Positions 5,829 to 19,175 of a DNA stretch of 47,469 bases are shown piece after piece (positions within the stretch are counted from its first letter, which is position 1; every line of letters starts with the position of its first letter). The notes beneath the pieces are model-generated. The model made no database searches. It had not been told where the DNA came from and worked only from the letters and a program-made list of their open reading frames with translations. The translations under genes and the position numbers were made by a program. The stretch comes from a virus (lineage: Duplodnaviria; Heunggongvirae; Uroviricota; Caudoviricetes). The stretch lies in IMG/VR virus record IMGVR_UViG_2877274432_000010; one strand, given 5' to 3'.

Positions 5829-5920
5829 TTAAATTTAGCACTGTTAAAAATTTAATCCTTAACCGGAGGGATTTCTGCACCCTCAAATCATCAGGAGACC
5901 GCCCGAAAGGGCGGTAATGA

Positions 5921-6139
5921 ATGGTTACATTATTTAGAAAAAAATATCCGCGAAAGAGTAGAACAACAGAATTCCTGTTTCTCATTCTGTTTATCGTGTT
6001 GATGACACCGATATCCCCGCAAATTTTTGTCTGGATAATCGGAAAAATAATTGAGCCAGTTATTGAATTGTATAACGACGTGGTATGGGCGTCATTCAAC
6101 ACACTGCACAATAAAATTAATCCGTATAAGGAAAGCTGA
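5921..6139 (+). CDS. Small hydrophobic hypothetical protein
   Basis: 72-aa ORF with a hydrophobic central segment (FLFLILFIVLMTPISPQIFVWIIG); coding status uncertain. Confidence 0.3.
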   Translation: MVTLFRKKYPRKSRTTEFLFLILFIVLMTPISPQIFVWIIGKIIEPVIELYNDVVWASFNTLHNKINPYKES

Positions 6140-7617: not shown

Positions 7618-7650
7618 CAAAAACCCCGGATTGATGGTCCGGGGTTTTTG
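7618..7650 (+). terminator. Rho-independent terminator
   Basis: CCCCGGA...TCCGGGG stem followed by TTTTT. Confidence 0.7.
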
Positions 7651-8379: not shown

Positions 8380-8631
8380 GTGGATATAACCGTTTGTACT
8401 TATAAACCTGGGGGCATCGTGGAAAAAATAAAGAAACTATTTAGTAGCAAATACGCAGTCATACGTCGTGATGACCTGTCAGTTATAGTCGAAATGGATT
8501 ACTTCCCTGAAACCCCAAAATCAATAATGTATCGTAATGGTCGAAAGGCAATTTTTTTACCGATGAGGGTAAGTGACATTATGGGAAATGATAAACTGCT
8601 GGATGAATTGCGAGTCAGAGCATCCTGTTAG
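8380..8631 (+). CDS. Hypothetical protein (size and position like rem of Qin-type prophages)
   Basis: 83-aa ORF in AT-rich context downstream of hok; stop codon lies inside the IS1 target duplication. Confidence 0.4.
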   Translation: MDITVCTYKPGGIVEKIKKLFSSKYAVIRRDDLSVIVEMDYFPETPKSIMYRNGRKAIFLPMRVSDIMGNDKLLDELRVRASC

Positions 8632-13208: not shown

Positions 13209-13285
13209 GGCCCTTTAGCTCAGTTGGTCAGAGCGAGCGACTCATAATCGCCAGGTCGCTGGTTCAAGTCCAGCAAGGGCCACCA
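13209..13285 (+). tRNA. tRNA with CAU anticodon (Met or Ile2/lysidine type)
   Basis: Cloverleaf with 7-bp acceptor stem GGCCCTT/AAGGGCC, anticodon loop CTCATAA, T-loop GGTTCAAGTCC, 3' CCA; resembles E. coli ileX but diverged. Confidence 0.75.
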
Positions 13286-13286
13286 A

Positions 13287-13363
13287 CCACCACTAGCTCA
13301 TCCGGATAGAGCATCAACCTTCTAAGTTGACGGTGCGAGGTTCGAGTCCTCGGTGGTGGGCCA
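13287..13363 (+). tRNA. tRNA-Arg (UCU)
   Basis: Acceptor CCACCAC/GTGGTGG, anticodon stem TCAAC/GTTGA, loop CTTCTAA, T-arm CGAGG-TTCGAGT-CCTCG, CCA end. Confidence 0.8.
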
Positions 13364-13365
13364 GC

Positions 13366-13441
<76 letters not shown>

Positions 13442-13444
13442 TAT

Positions 13445-13519
<75 letters not shown>

Positions 13520-13633
13520 TGACCTTTCTTAAAGTACTCCAACCTACTGAATCCTAAGGGATACGGCTTTAAGCCTCCTTGCAGAGTTACTTACTGTAAC
13601 CCACTGTGTAACCCTCTCAGGGCATGCAGACAT

Positions 13634-15238
13634 ATGATTCAGCTATCCAGTAGTCACAAACTTCCAGCAGTCTACTATCTCTACCAGCGTAACGGCGTCT
13701 ACTACTTCCGTCTTAGGGTCAGACAATCAAACAATGATAGAATGACCTCAATATCATTACGGACCAAGGATAGACGCACCGCTATGGCTTACTCAAGGCA
13801 CATAAAGGCAGCACTCAAGGCAATACACGCAGACAGACCCAACGCTACCTATGAGGAAATGAGGGAACACCTTAAGGACATCGCTGAGTGTGAACTGTCT
13901 ATGGGCCGTTCAGATCTCTTTGAGCCTGACATGAGGGATATCTACCGGGACCAATACGGAGAACTTGGTGAGAGCCTTACCGATGCTCTGGCTAGTGAGC
14001 CGCTAAGCATTGACCAGCATCGTTACATCAATGAGGCCCTGAAGGTGCTAAAAGCCTGTATGAGGCGTATCGAAGCGGGAGACAGTCAGCCTCTGATAGA
14101 TTACGTCGATCTTTTTAATGATATTGATAGGCAAGATAACCAAGCAGACTCTGTGTCCCTATCTGTTAATGCTCCAGAAGTAAAACCAGAAGTTACGCCT
14201 AGCATTACCATAGCGAGCCTCTTTGAACAATACGAAGCGGAGAACTATCAGAACTGGAAGCCTGCAACCTTAAGGGAAAACAAGGCGTCACACGCTGCGT
14301 TAATCGAAATATTCGACCATCTGGGTCTCAATGCAGACGCTAACAGGGCTGACATGCTTAGGGTCCGTGATGTGCTCCAGCAGTTACCTAGGAACCGTAA
14401 GCAGCGCTTCAAGGATGTCCCACTTGCTGACCTGTTGAGCCGTGAAGATAAGACAGATTGTCTGGATGTCGTTACCATCAACAACAAGTATCTTATTAAG
14501 ATGGCTGCTGTCTTTAGGTGGGCTGTGCGCAATGACTTGATTAAAAAGAACATGACTGAGGGTCTGGAGCTTAAAGTCCCTCAGCGTAAAGCCTCAGGGG
14601 CCCGTAACGCCTTCTCTACGGAGCAGGTGGGGCAACTACTGGTCGCAGCTAAGGCATACTCTCAGAAGACCTCTGGTAAGCCGTATCATTATTATGTTAC
14701 CGCCTTGGCTGCTATCACTGGGGCGAGACTCAATGAAATAGCCCAACTACAGGTCAAAGACGTCAGGACCACTGAGGCGGGAACCGTTTATATTCATATC
14801 AATGAAGACGATAGTAGTCTACCCGGTAAGAGCATCAAGAACGCTCATAGTGACCGCTGTGTGCCTCTGGTCGATGGGGCCTATGGTTTTATATTGGCTG
14901 ACTTTATGGCGCTTGTAGAGACCCGTAGAGGCGCTGACGGTGATGACGCTATGGTGTTCGATGGTCTGCGTCTCATGAAGAACGGTTACGGTGAGCAGGT
15001 GAGTAAATGGTTTAATCGGACGTTGTTGCCTAAAGTCCTCGTAGACCGTAGCGGCTTAGCGTTTCACTCGTTTAGACATACAGTTGCGGCCCAGTTAAAA
15101 CAACATGGGGTCGAGTTGGCGTATGCACAGGCGATCATGGGGCATAGTTCAGGGTCTATTACGTACGACCGTTATGCTAAAGAGGTCGAGGTTGATAGGC
15201 TGGTCAATGTGATGGCTGATGTTTATAAGGAGACCTAG
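13634..15238 (+). CDS. Tyrosine site-specific recombinase (integrase), 534 aa
   Basis: C-terminal catalytic region with HSFRHTVAAQL...HSSGSITYDRYA pattern (R, H-x-x-R, Y); starts 114 bp after the tRNA-Gly 3' end in the same orientation. Confidence 0.8.
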   Translation: MIQLSSSHKLPAVYYLYQRNGVYYFRLRVRQSNNDRMTSISLRTKDRRTAMAYSRHIKAALKAIHADRPNATYEEMREHLKDIAECELSMGRSDLFEPDMRDIYRDQYGELGESLTDALASEPLSIDQHRYINEALKVLKACMRRIEAGDSQPLIDYVDLFNDIDRQDNQADSVSLSVNAPEVKPEVTPSITIASLFEQYEAENYQNWKPATLRENKASHAALIEIFDHLGLNADANRADMLRVRDVLQQLPRNRKQRFKDVPLADLLSREDKTDCLDVVTINNKYLIKMAAVFRWAVRNDLIKKNMTEGLELKVPQRKASGARNAFSTEQVGQLLVAAKAYSQKTSGKPYHYYVTALAAITGARLNEIAQLQVKDVRTTEAGTVYIHINEDDSSLPGKSIKNAHSDRCVPLVDGAYGFILADFMALVETRRGADGDDAMVFDGLRLMKNGYGEQVSKWFNRTLLPKVLVDRSGLAFHSFRHTVAAQLKQHGVELAYAQAIMGHSSGSITYDRYAKEVEVDRLVNVMADVYKET

Positions 15239-15326
15239 AGGAGACCATAGTCTAGGATGACACTTACTACAGACCTGTGTGGTCATGTTTTTGACTCATA
15301 GTTTTCTCTACTTGTCAAGTGATAAT

Positions 15327-15349
15327 TAATACGACTCACTATAGGGAGA
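15327..15349 (+). promoter_or_regulatory. T7 RNA polymerase promoter consensus (copy 1)
   Basis: Exact TAATACGACTCACTATAGGGAGA; predicted +1 G at 15344, transcription rightward. Confidence 0.7.
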
Positions 15350-15447
15350 AGGGACACAAAAAGTTTTCTCTTCTAGGATGACACTTACTACAGACCTGTG
15401 CGGTCATGTTTTTGACTCATAGTTTTCTCTGCTTGTCAAGGGGTAAT

Positions 15448-15470
15448 TAATACGACTCACTATAGGGAGA
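15448..15470 (+). promoter_or_regulatory. T7 RNA polymerase promoter consensus (copy 2)
   Basis: Exact TAATACGACTCACTATAGGGAGA. Confidence 0.7.
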
Positions 15471-15567
15471 AGGGACACAAAAAGTTTTCTCTTCTAGGAT
15501 GACACTTACTACAGACCTGTGTGGTCATGTTTTTGACTCATGGTTTTCTCTACTTGTCAAGGATAAT

Positions 15568-15590
15568 TAATACGACTCACTATAGGGAGA
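15568..15590 (+). promoter_or_regulatory. T7 RNA polymerase promoter consensus (copy 3)
   Basis: Exact TAATACGACTCACTATAGGGAGA. Confidence 0.7.
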
Positions 15591-15620
15591 AGGGACACAA
15601 AAAGTTTTCTCTTCTAGGAC

Positions 15621-15987
15621 AACTAACCGTAACTTATCGCATCCTTTCAGGGGCGGGATGACCAATTACAGACACCAAGCGTTCTACTTAAAGTGAATGC
15701 TTCCTGTGTGCTCTGGGTCAGTCGATAAGTGAATAGCAATAAGACACAATCATCTTAATTATGGTCTCTAGTCCCTACAGGGGCTTAACTTAAAGTTAAC
15801 TTAAAGACACAATTAAAGATTAACTTATAGTATTACTTAAAGTTAACTTAAAGACACAATTAGAGATTAACTTTAAGTATTAAATAAAAGATTTAATTAA
15901 AGACCAATTAAAGATTAACTCTAAGGGAATACCTTAAGGGGTGATGATATTTATAATAATCAATCACCAAACCTATAGGTCTTCTCT
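15621..15987 (+). repeat. AT-rich region with short tandem repeats (TTAACTTAAAG / AAAGATTAACT modules)
   Basis: Two ~47-bp tandem units at about 15797-15890 and further degenerate copies; no ORF; region ends at the IS911 insertion. Confidence 0.75.
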
Positions 15988-16059
15988 TGAAGTGGCACAC
16001 TGAATTTGGCCACCTGAACAGAGGTGATATGCTCACCTCAGAACAACACAGGTGCTCCA

Positions 16060-17882
<1,823 letters not shown>

Positions 17883-18110
17883 TCTAGGGTCTCTCTATAG
17901 GTCTTCTCTATGGTCTCTCTATAGGTCTCTCTAGGGTCTCCTCTAGGCATTACCCCCAGAAGCTAACTCTATGGCCCTCTATGGTCCTCTATGGCCCTGT
18001 ACGTCATTCTTTAGGATGCCCTGTAGTTTCGTATAGCCTGATGCCTAGAGAGACCCTAGAGAGACCCTAGAGTGGCTCCTAGAGAGACCCTCCCAGTAGC
18101 TCCGCACAGC
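17883..18110 (+). repeat. Arrays of a 13-bp motif (GGGTCTCTCTAGG-like) in direct then inverted orientation
   Basis: Direct copies at 17883-17945, CTATGGNCCT x3 in the centre, inverted copies CCTAGAGAGACCC x3 at about 18048-18100; the same motif also flanks the left side of IS911 (15965-15987). Confidence 0.8.
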
Positions 18111-18251
18111 TACATCGTCATCATCATAGTATTCAATCTCAAAGTCATTCTGTTTGCATCCTGTTGTCCTGCTGGTCTCCCTTCGCTTGGGGACTTTGAG
18201 TAGGTCAGTGGGGGTGCGACTTCAGGGTGCAAACAAAAAGGAAATCAAGCG

Positions 18252-18407
18252 ATGTCTCAACAACCACAACAACCACAACAAGAAATCAGCATCATTAACC
18301 TCGACCAGCTTGTGTCCATGACCTCAGTTGAAATTGCTGAGCTGACAGGCAAGGAGCACCGAAATGTCCTTCGTGATATTCGTAAGATGCTCGAAGAACT
18401 TAACGCG
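18252..18407 (+). pseudogene. Rha-family phage regulatory protein, N-terminal fragment truncated by IS1
   Basis: SMTSVEIAELTGKEHRNVLRDIRKML matches the Rha N-terminal motif; frame runs into the IS1 end at 18408. Confidence 0.55.
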
Positions 18408-18462
18408 GGTAATGCTGCCAACTTACTGATTTAGTGTATGATGGTGATTTTAAGGTGCTTGC

Positions 18463-18738
18463 GTGGCTTCCATTTCCATCAGATGTCCTTCCTGCTCCGC
18501 TACTGAAGGCGTGGTGCGTAACGGCAAAAGCACTGCCGGACATCAGCGCTATCTCTGCTCTCATTGCCGTAAAACATGGCAACTACAGTTCACTTACACC
18601 GCCTCTCAGCCCGGTACGCACCAGAAAATCATTGATATGGCCATGAATGGCGTCGGATGTCGTGCCAGTGCACGCATTATGGGCGTTGGCCTCAACACGG
18701 TTTTACGTCACTTAAAAAACTCAGGCCGCAGTCGGTAA
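18463..18738 (+). CDS. insA: IS1 InsA
   Basis: 91-aa ORF. Confidence 0.85.
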
Positions 18739-19160
18739 CCTCGCGCATACAACCGGGCAGTGATGTGATTGTCTGCGCTGAAATGGACGAACATTGGGGC
18801 TACGTCGGTGCTAAATCACGTCAGCGCTGGCTGTTTTACGCGTATGACAGGATACGGAGGACGGTTGTGGCGCACGTCTTCGGTGAACGCACTCTGGCCA
18901 CACTGGAGCGTCTTCTGAGCCTGCTGTCGGCCTTTGAGGTCGTGGTATGGATGACGGATGGCTGGCCGCTGTATGAATCACGCCTGAAGGGAAAGCTGCA
19001 CGTTATCAGCAAGCGTTACACTCAGCGCATTGAGCGACATAATCTGAATCTGAGACAACATCTGGCAAGGCTGGTACGGAAGTCACTGTCGTTCTCAAAA
19101 TCGGTGGAGCTGCATGACAAGGTCATCGGGCATTATCTGAACATAAAACACTATCAGTAA
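18657..19160 (+). CDS. insB: IS1 InsB
   Basis: 167-aa ORF (MSCQCTHY variant). Confidence 0.85.
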
Positions 19161-19175
19161 GTTGGAGTCATTACC

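Follow-up and report, generated by a model that had tools for sequence, protein, structure and literature searches.

The right genome ends of the T7-group phages T7, T3, phiYeO3-12, and K11 combine the promoter phiOR with an AT-rich stretch holding CTTAAAG-type motifs, a GGTGAT...ATCACC hairpin downstream of the promoter and then 10–13 bp repeats with the cores CCTA(A/G)AG, CTATGG, and TATAGG. The short repeats SRL and SRR flank the terminal repeat in these phages, and their function has long been unexplained. T7-like phages are strictly virulent models and to our knowledge no satellite of them is known. Phage satellites of other kinds (PICI, P4-like, PLE, and vibrio PICMI) are small integrase islands at tRNA genes that often carry anti-phage genes and remain silent until a specific helper phage infects. 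T7 replicates and transduces engineered plasmids that carry a T7 origin, a pac site, and a terminal repeat (PMC13236587, citing Chung and Hinkle 1990), and for this reason a natural hitch-hiker of T7-like phages is plausible. PMC9519451 describes PD-T7-4 as an anti-T7 defence gene that, like its homologues, often overlaps an integrase gene, and PMC13017515 gives its new name, RAZR.

Here we consider three arrays of short repeats at 17883–18110 of a viral stretch of 47,469 nucleotides (Caudoviricetes; IMG/VR record IMGVR_UViG_2877274432_000010), in the following called the window. The arrays lie in an integrase island inserted at a tRNA-Gly gene, and they very probably belong to the cis module of an island that responds to T7-like phages. 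The layout of the module (promoters, structured element, AT block, hairpin, short repeats, leader, gene) resembles the T7 stretch from phiOR to the concatemer junction. The promoter, the AT-rich stretch, the hairpin, and the short repeats with such cores have their likeness in the island, and in its relatives a second, weaker phage promoter takes the phiOL position. Unlike the T7-group right end the module is chromosomal and beside an integrase gene, lacks the 160–230 bp terminal repeat and the motif ATCTGTT, has a 120-nt structured element after the promoter, and carries repeats that are only loosely similar in sequence. Like the engineered T7 phagemids, the island would be a small non-phage replicon relying on a T7 promoter-origin and junction for amplification and transduction by T7, but it is natural and integrative and has no recognisable terminal repeat. 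It differs from the described satellites in having no genes for a replication initiator, a primase, a terminase small subunit, or capsid remodelling, in that its putative helpers are virulent T7-like podophages, and in that induction would proceed via promoters for the phage RNA polymerase (RNAP) rather than by derepression. In a literature search no paper was found to describe satellites of T7-like phages or chromosomal islands that carry promoters for the phage RNAP. The arrays alone are a modest feature; as far as these searches show, the element that hosts them is an undescribed variant of phage-responsive islands.

Promoters, Arrays, and the Pre-insertion Sequence

The first-pass annotation had linked the arrays to T7, and aptly so. 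Three exact T7 consensus promoters (TAATACGACTCACTATAGGGAGA) are found in the same module, at 15327–15349, 15448–15470, and 15568–15590, where none is expected by chance. Each is carried by one of the 121-bp tandem units (3.1 units, 15251–15619, + strand, reading rightward) that follow the intact gene for a tyrosine integrase of 534 aa (13634–15238, + strand; Pfam Phage_integrase, E 2e-17). Their best match in T7 is phiOR, with positions +1 to +20 included (42 nt, 86%). Such an arrangement is not confined to the window. In 15 of the 19 loci scanned a promoter motif of the T7-family type is located 0.1–1.3 kb downstream of the integrase gene, and the specificities differ. The island of Klebsiella pneumoniae ATCC 13883 carries two copies of AATTAGGGCACACTATAGGGAG, of which one matches K11 phi9/phi13 at all 24 nt (100%) and the other differs by one mismatch, as well as a T7-type promoter. 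Islands of Citrobacter, Enterobacter, and some E. coli carry ACTTAACTATCACTATAGGGAGA, which in the database is closest to the right-end (phiOR) promoter of Kayfunavirus phages such as EcoDS1 and CR44b; in CR44b this is the sole promoter between gene 19 and the terminal repeat. In Proteus and Kluyvera the promoter is AATTAACCCACACTATAGGGAGA, which resembles promoters that several T7-like phages carry in 12–15 copies per genome. Which phages each lineage faces may be readable from these changes of promoter between host genera.

The module opens with one to three phiOR-like promoters and ends with a gene of the KilA-N/Rha/Ant type, and in relatives a second, weak T7-like promoter is added. In E. 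coli relatives (L001, 7000–7050) one to three copies of AATCAATACG lead into AATCAATACGACTTACTAATAGGAGACA, a degenerate promoter of the T7 class II-like kind ahead of the gene; the window lineage has lost the AATCAATACGACTTACTAATAGGAGACA promoter via a deletion of about 110 bp between 18095 and 18100.

The repeats of the window were called with Tandem Repeats Finder and an exact-repeat search, and all three arrays are given on the + strand. The left array consists of direct 12-bp units (TCTCTAKRGGTC-like) at 17883–17950; Tandem Repeats Finder delimits it at 17883–17945 (period 12, 5.4 copies) and offers an alternative call of period 24 with 2.8 copies from 17878. The direct array had been annotated at 17883–17945, and it extends a little further, to about 17950. 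The middle array, located at 17967–18001 between the direct and the inverted copies as first proposed, contains CTCTATGGNCC three times (unit CTCTATGG(C/T)CC, period 10; Tandem Repeats Finder: 17967–17998, period 10, 3.2 copies, CTCTATGGCC). The right array, CCTAGAGAGACC three times plus one degenerate copy (CCTAGAGTGGCTC), is the reverse complement of the left; the three inverted copies had been placed at about 18048–18100 and are indeed present, but the array spans 18044–18091 (Tandem Repeats Finder: period 11, 4.3 copies, CCTAGAGAGAC) and holds the degenerate copy besides the three exact ones (CCTAGAGAGACCCT at 18044, 18055, and 18078). The left and right arrays thereby form the two arms, up to 29 nt each, of a long inverted repeat that includes perfect matches of 17 and 15 nt. 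Allowing one mismatch, GGTCTCTCTAKRG is found six times in the 47.5-kb window, where 0.12 occurrences are expected and 100 shuffles gave a maximum of two. All six matches fall in this region; the motifs are clustered, in both orientations and specific to this island, and they are not a generic high-copy repeat of the REP/ERIC kind.

One unit of the left array is found elsewhere. The motif noticed immediately to the left of IS911 is CTATAGGTCTTCTCT at 15973–15987 (+ strand), the first unit of the direct array, which abuts the left end of IS911 (TGAAGTGGCACAC begins at 15988) and is severed by it from the other units. The insertion occupies 15988–17882 (+ strand, TCT target duplication) and is made up of IS911 at 15988–17236 and a second, directly repeated copy of the 646 bp at the 3' end of the element, 17237–17882 being equal to 16591–17236. 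Before IS911 inserted, the AT-rich block and the array formed one uninterrupted stretch: an IMG/VR relative that is 99% identical and carries no insertion sequence (IS), L012, reads AATCACCAAACCTATAGGTCTTCTCT joined directly to AGGGTCTCTCTATAGG, in exact agreement with the sequence reconstructed by removing 15988–17882 and one TCT from the window. In most other strains that share the identical integrase there is one IS911 of 1249 bp (1247 bp in one), and CP012735.1 carries the same 1895-bp insert as the window. The island is inactivated in the window, its array being split by IS911, the gene that follows cut short by IS1, and its right end missing.

Likeness to the T7 Genome End

Between promoters and arrays lie three elements. 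The first is a structured element (15620–15739, + strand) with the 8-bp closing helix ACTTATCG/CGATAAGT and the hairpin CATCC-TTTCAGGGGCG-GGATG, also found at 8468–8588 of L015, 8023–8130 of L032, and 8455–8558 of L023. Both helices covary across genera (ACTTATCG/CGATAAGT, ACTCATCG/CGATGAGT, ATCTACC/GGTAGAT, CAATCTC/GAGATTG); in an alignment from which the variable middle had been removed, 91.6% of cells were paired and double changes occurred at 10 of 13 pairs, and none of 500 shuffles equalled this. The long-range helix emerged only after this excision, so the structure was chosen by eye, and MAFFT with RNAalifold on the full-length sequences of the element missed the helix. No Rfam family matched the element. 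It is possibly a new RNA that would be transcribed by the phage RNAP.

The second element is an AT-rich block (15785–15920, + strand) of TTAACTTAAAG-type repeats, with a 47-bp unit present 2.9 times and a GC content of 17–18% in the block equivalent to 15800–15940. It is weakly similar to the AT-rich part of the primary origin of T7 (5912–5995) and to the region after phiOL. An AT-rich region downstream of a promoter, as in a T7-type origin, is thus present, about 200 nt from the last promoter and further away than in T7, and all three phage-RNAP promoters, on the + strand, are directed into it. The third element is the hairpin GGTGATGATATTTATAATAATCAATCACC at 15940–15968 (+ strand), which together with its flanks aligns to T7 39316–39365, where a hairpin is located about 100 bp downstream of phiOR. 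The window copy scores z 3.4 against the T7 hairpin (5 of 300 shuffles reach the score) and two E. coli relatives score z 4.5–4.9 (0 of 300). Analogous hairpins follow phiOR in K11 and phiYeO3-12. The right side of a T7-group junction, a phiOR-type promoter with a hairpin, is represented in the module.

With the promoters excluded, T7 gives 40 weak high-scoring segment pairs (HSPs), 17 of which are located in the 3.2% of its genome that surrounds the junction (0.5 in shuffles), as are 8 of the 14 obtained with the hairpin and arrays (0.4 in shuffles), counts that are inflated by the repeats. The junction HSPs strike the phiOR hairpin, SRR (39666–39741), and SRL (303–339). The array region aligns to the right end of phiYeO3-12 with z 3.0–3.8; GATGCCCTGTAGTT is identical in the two, CTATGGTCTC is common to them, and CCTAAAGAGACCCT, 33 nt before the phiYeO3-12 terminal repeat, is the counterpart of island CCTAGAGAGACCCT. 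In period and core motifs the arrays are similar to SRL and SRR, and the likeness of sequence is only weak to moderate. The sequence TCTCANAGT, which in T7 and K11 is found solely at the start of the terminal repeat, has a copy at 18137 of the window and one or two in the other E. coli-type modules and is absent from those of other genera. Pentamers of the T7 primase type (GGGTC, TGGTC, GTGTC) are over-represented in E. coli-type modules and number 25 in the module (15238–15987 plus 17883–18251) relative to 5.6 ± 2.0 in shuffles, again inflated by the repeats; within the arrays they are on the top strand only in the left arm and on the bottom strand only in the right. This enrichment was not seen in the Klebsiella island.

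It is conceivable that these resemblances reflect the way in which the island is used, and sequence anatomy is the basis for each of the steps that follow. The island would be silent until a T7-like phage infects, no sigma-70-like promoter having been found in the module; the phage RNAP would then fire the island promoters, and transcription into the AT-rich region could allow the phage replisome to initiate as at T7 origins, by which the island would be amplified and its genes expressed. The short repeats may act like SRL and SRR beside the concatemer junction, as binding or pausing sites in helical phase and possibly as primase starts (GGGTC/TGGTC, on opposite strands in the two arms), and they could help the island to be processed or packaged along with the phage genome, or could hamper the phage. 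We hold tentatively, at somewhat less than an even chance, that the whole explanation of the arrays is of this kind, i.e., that they are SRL/SRR-like repeats within an origin and junction mimic used upon T7-like infection. An origin or junction function of the repeats themselves is possible, with the balance inclining against it. It is tempting to speculate further that the islands, 4–6.5 kb in size, are either naturally occurring satellites of virulent T7-like podophages or defence elements triggered by these phages, mimicking the phiOR origin and junction of the helper with promoters matched to the local phage, and amplified and packaged as concatemers with the arrays as packaging or pausing repeats and the structured element as a new RNA, but we consider this full scenario unlikely. 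If true, a chromosomal element that is built like the origin and packaging end of a phage and switched on by its RNAP would give mobile elements a new means of sensing, exploiting, or blocking virulent phages, the genomic setting of RAZR and its mobility would be explained, and a natural system would be at hand for asking what the SRL and SRR repeats at T7 ends do.

Besides the inflated HSP counts, several results weigh against reading the arrays as part of a T7-type junction. Pairwise comparison of the array region with T7 SRR gave a non-significant z of about 2, ATCTGTT, the class II pause site of the junction, is absent from all ten modules scanned, and no repeat-length unit equivalent to the terminal repeat could be defined in the modules. 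The array motifs are single copy in most relatives, and the long arrays are therefore not required by the module; the hairpin that they form is likewise lineage specific, since the homologous segment of E. coli FT130 has no array-type hairpin beyond shuffles (z −0.28). A collection of 50,697 phage records gave no match to the arrays. Beyond the promoters there is little similarity between the Klebsiella island and K11 or between the Citrobacter island and CR44b. Pfam, PHROG, and PADLOC gave no match in the islands to genes for replication, capsid, terminase, or redirection of packaging, and no excised, concatemeric, or virion-derived island was found in a small sample of IMG/VR or JGI metagenome contigs, all of those recovered having the island in its integrated form. 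The earlier proposal of terminal or packaging-type sequences is accordingly retained for the context, which is like that of the phiOR-to-junction region, and loses force for the arrays, which are only weakly to moderately like the SR repeats and come without a terminal repeat or ATCTGTT.

In blastn of module and arrays against the same phage records only the promoters matched, and Rfam contains no family for the arrays. The 87 short-query matches obtained in T7-like phages lie within the coding sequence of gene 19 at E = 6 and were discarded as chance; the IMG/VR matches of the repeat unit in L013 and L014 are unrelated contigs.

Variation of the Arrays and Alternative Explanations

Relatives with 85–95% identical flanking DNA have one copy of each array motif. 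In E. coli relatives, about 92% identical over the array segment, CCTATAGGTCTCCTC and CCTAGCGTGGCTCAGAGACCC each occur once, as against 6–7 and 3–4 units in the window lineage, and the arrays are therefore expansions specific to the window lineage. The counterpart of the middle array in relatives is CTGTATGGCC, repeated 2.5–3.5 times. Strains with an identical integrase also vary among themselves, with one, two, or three promoter units, a left array of 68, 80, or 81 nt (71 and 84 nt for the IS-bearing strings, which count the duplicated TCT twice), and two, three, or four right-array units. The expanded part of the arrays is unmatched in the best-ranked E. coli genomes, and coverage of the query stays below 80% in every genome.

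Such variation is what would be expected if the arrays were neutral by-products of slippage and of template switching between quasi-palindrome arms in a decaying element. The single-copy motifs of the E. coli relatives, the copy numbers that change between strains with the same integrase, the failure of the expanded part to align in the best-matching E. coli genomes, and a window copy riddled with IS elements all agree with a neutral origin, which is a serious rival because the long arrays are confined to a single lineage, whose copy is broken by IS elements. On the other hand three motifs within 210 bp have converged on CTCTA(T)(A)GG / CCTAGAG, which looks like more than slippage of one unit would give, and in the window lineage all three copies of CTGTATGG have become CTCTATGG by a concerted G-to-C change. 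Tandem arrays of 10–13 bp units moreover recur elsewhere in E. coli-type modules (GATGACCATAGGC with up to 12.5 copies, CCTATGTGGT, CTGTATGGCC, and AATCAATACG), of which they are a general feature, being rare in other genera, and comparable repeats occur at T7-group junctions. Taken together we regard a purely neutral origin as unlikely.

The folding of the arrays invites a different explanation, in which they act as RNA. T7 mRNAs are processed at hairpins by RNase III, and with this as precedent the transcript hairpin of about 60 bp could be an RNase III site, a stabiliser, or an attenuator before the Rha-like gene. The folded array has a dG of −101 kcal/mol as RNA (z −6.65; −5.8 as DNA), and the arrays are situated between promoters and gene with no terminator between. 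However, the homologous segment of relatives folds no better than shuffles, no U-run follows the stem, and the lengths of the two arms vary independently among strains, which makes a role as RNA improbable.

It has also to be considered that the arrays could be operator or iteron-like sites for a protein of the island itself, of the Rha type here and of the KilA-N type in E. coli relatives. Units placed about one helical turn apart are suited to protein binding, and the lineage with the expanded CTCTAGG-type arrays has the Rha-type gene, the unexpanded lineages having the KilA-N type. This correlation is one of two lineages only, though, the conserved leader next to the gene is free of the motif, the single copies of relatives do not make an evident binding array, and there is no Rep-like protein; we think it quite improbable that the arrays serve in this way. 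Iterons in the proper sense, which the first-pass annotation had listed among its possibilities, fare no better. The iterons of plasmids and phages (17–22 bp) likewise are clustered direct repeats beside an AT-rich region, but the island units, at 10–12 bp, are half the usual length, vary in number, include inverted copies, and have no cognate Rep gene in any member of the family.

The same annotation had considered recombinase arm sites. Nothing beyond the proximity to the integrase gene and the repetition of the motifs speaks for arm-type sites of the adjacent integrase, and we give this possibility hardly any credence. The arrays are in the middle of the island, about 0.7 kb (before IS insertion) past the 3' end of the integrase gene and outside the attP arms, and islands whose integrases are closely related differ in the number of repeats. 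Both arms of most islands checked have instead a pair of TGTAACC motifs, which are the better candidates and likely the arm-type sites of the integrase. In the window the pair is at 13595–13613 (+ strand, 12 bp apart). Of seven islands checked, three (L015, L018, and L031) have two copies about 90 bp inside each end, and the other four (L001, L021, L023, and L032) have at least one copy at either end; examples are L001, with 4358 and 8460/8472, and L015, with 5937/5949 and 12198/12210.

The Island Family and the Setting of the Window Copy

Islands of this family are found well beyond E. coli. Homologs of the integrase, 65–87% identical, were found in 20 species of Enterobacterales and, where a tRNA gene could be located, at tRNA-Gly. 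The islands are discrete units of 4.3–6.5 kb, and the 22-bp repeat of tRNA-Gly that bounds them is perfect in 6 of 10 bounded relatives and has two to four mismatches in the other four. In E. coli the same module is beside glyU (tRNA-Gly CCC), and the unit of E. coli FT130 spans 4.3 kb between two perfectly matching 22-bp copies of the tRNA 3' end. Among 5,426 complete genomes 92 match the promoter side and 346 the leader side of the module. An identical integrase is encoded in many complete NCBI genomes of 4.6–4.7 Mb, e.g., CP012735.1, which are probably those of Shigella flexneri. Eight metagenome contigs with the structured element are all collinear with an integrated island, and none has a circular or concatemer junction.

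The gene set of the family comprises int, RAZR, a gene of the KilA-N/Ant/Rha type, a protein of about 65 aa, DUF6971, and an unannotated protein of 330–400 aa. In the shared layout the non-coding module is placed between RAZR and the KilA-N/Ant/Rha-type gene. In many relatives RAZR, a DUF4145 protein (PADLOC E 8e-99), directly follows the same integrase, for instance at 7624–8256 of L015, and homologs are present in L018 and L021–L025; unlike these, the window island and the E. coli glyU variants have no RAZR. A term search of PMC9519451 and PMC13017515 returned no mention of the promoters or the non-coding module.

In the window the arrays are followed by a conserved leader (18135–18251, + strand) that starts with TCTCAAAGTCATTCTGTTTGC, contains internal inverted repeats, and is kept in the islands of Citrobacter, Enterobacter, and Proteus as CTCAA(A)GTCATTCTGTTTGC... 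Its inverted repeats CTCAAAGTC/GACTTTGAG and TTTGCATCCTG/CAGGGTGCAAA adjoin the ribosome-binding site, and its beginning, TCTCAAAGT, seen at 18137 and solely in E. coli-type islands, resembles the left ends of T7-group genomes (TCTCANAGT). The leader precedes an N-terminal fragment of a Rha-family regulator gene (18252–18406, + strand; Pfam Phage_pRha, E 6e-10), which is cut by IS1 at 18407–19175. Neither a sigma-70-like promoter nor an intrinsic terminator was predicted between the integrase gene and the Rha-like gene.

A lambdoid prophage makes up the left part of the window, with replication genes, DUF1367, and a Q-like gene. It carries a tightly packed cluster of four tRNA genes (Met, Arg, Thr, and Gly; 13209–13519), the last of which, tRNA-Gly(TCC) at 13445–13519 (+ strand; ARAGORN, Rfam), provides with its 3' end the left attachment site of the island, the islands of relatives being bounded by a direct repeat of the same tRNA-Gly 3' end. 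As the insertion site is within the tRNA cluster of a prophage, the island rides inside this prophage. The same prophage tRNA setting is seen in E. coli EPSSH018 (L002), most relatives being at chromosomal glyU.

The right boundary of the island is missing from the window. Past IS1 come IS600, tail-fibre genes of the prophage, and sitABCD, and the right part of the island is therefore lost. The genes of the sitABCD-type metal ABC transporter (23112–26561) are located just past the prophage tail-fibre genes, and the copies of IS1 and IS600 that crowd the stretch before them point to an IS-mediated deletion of the prophage late region together with the right end of the island.

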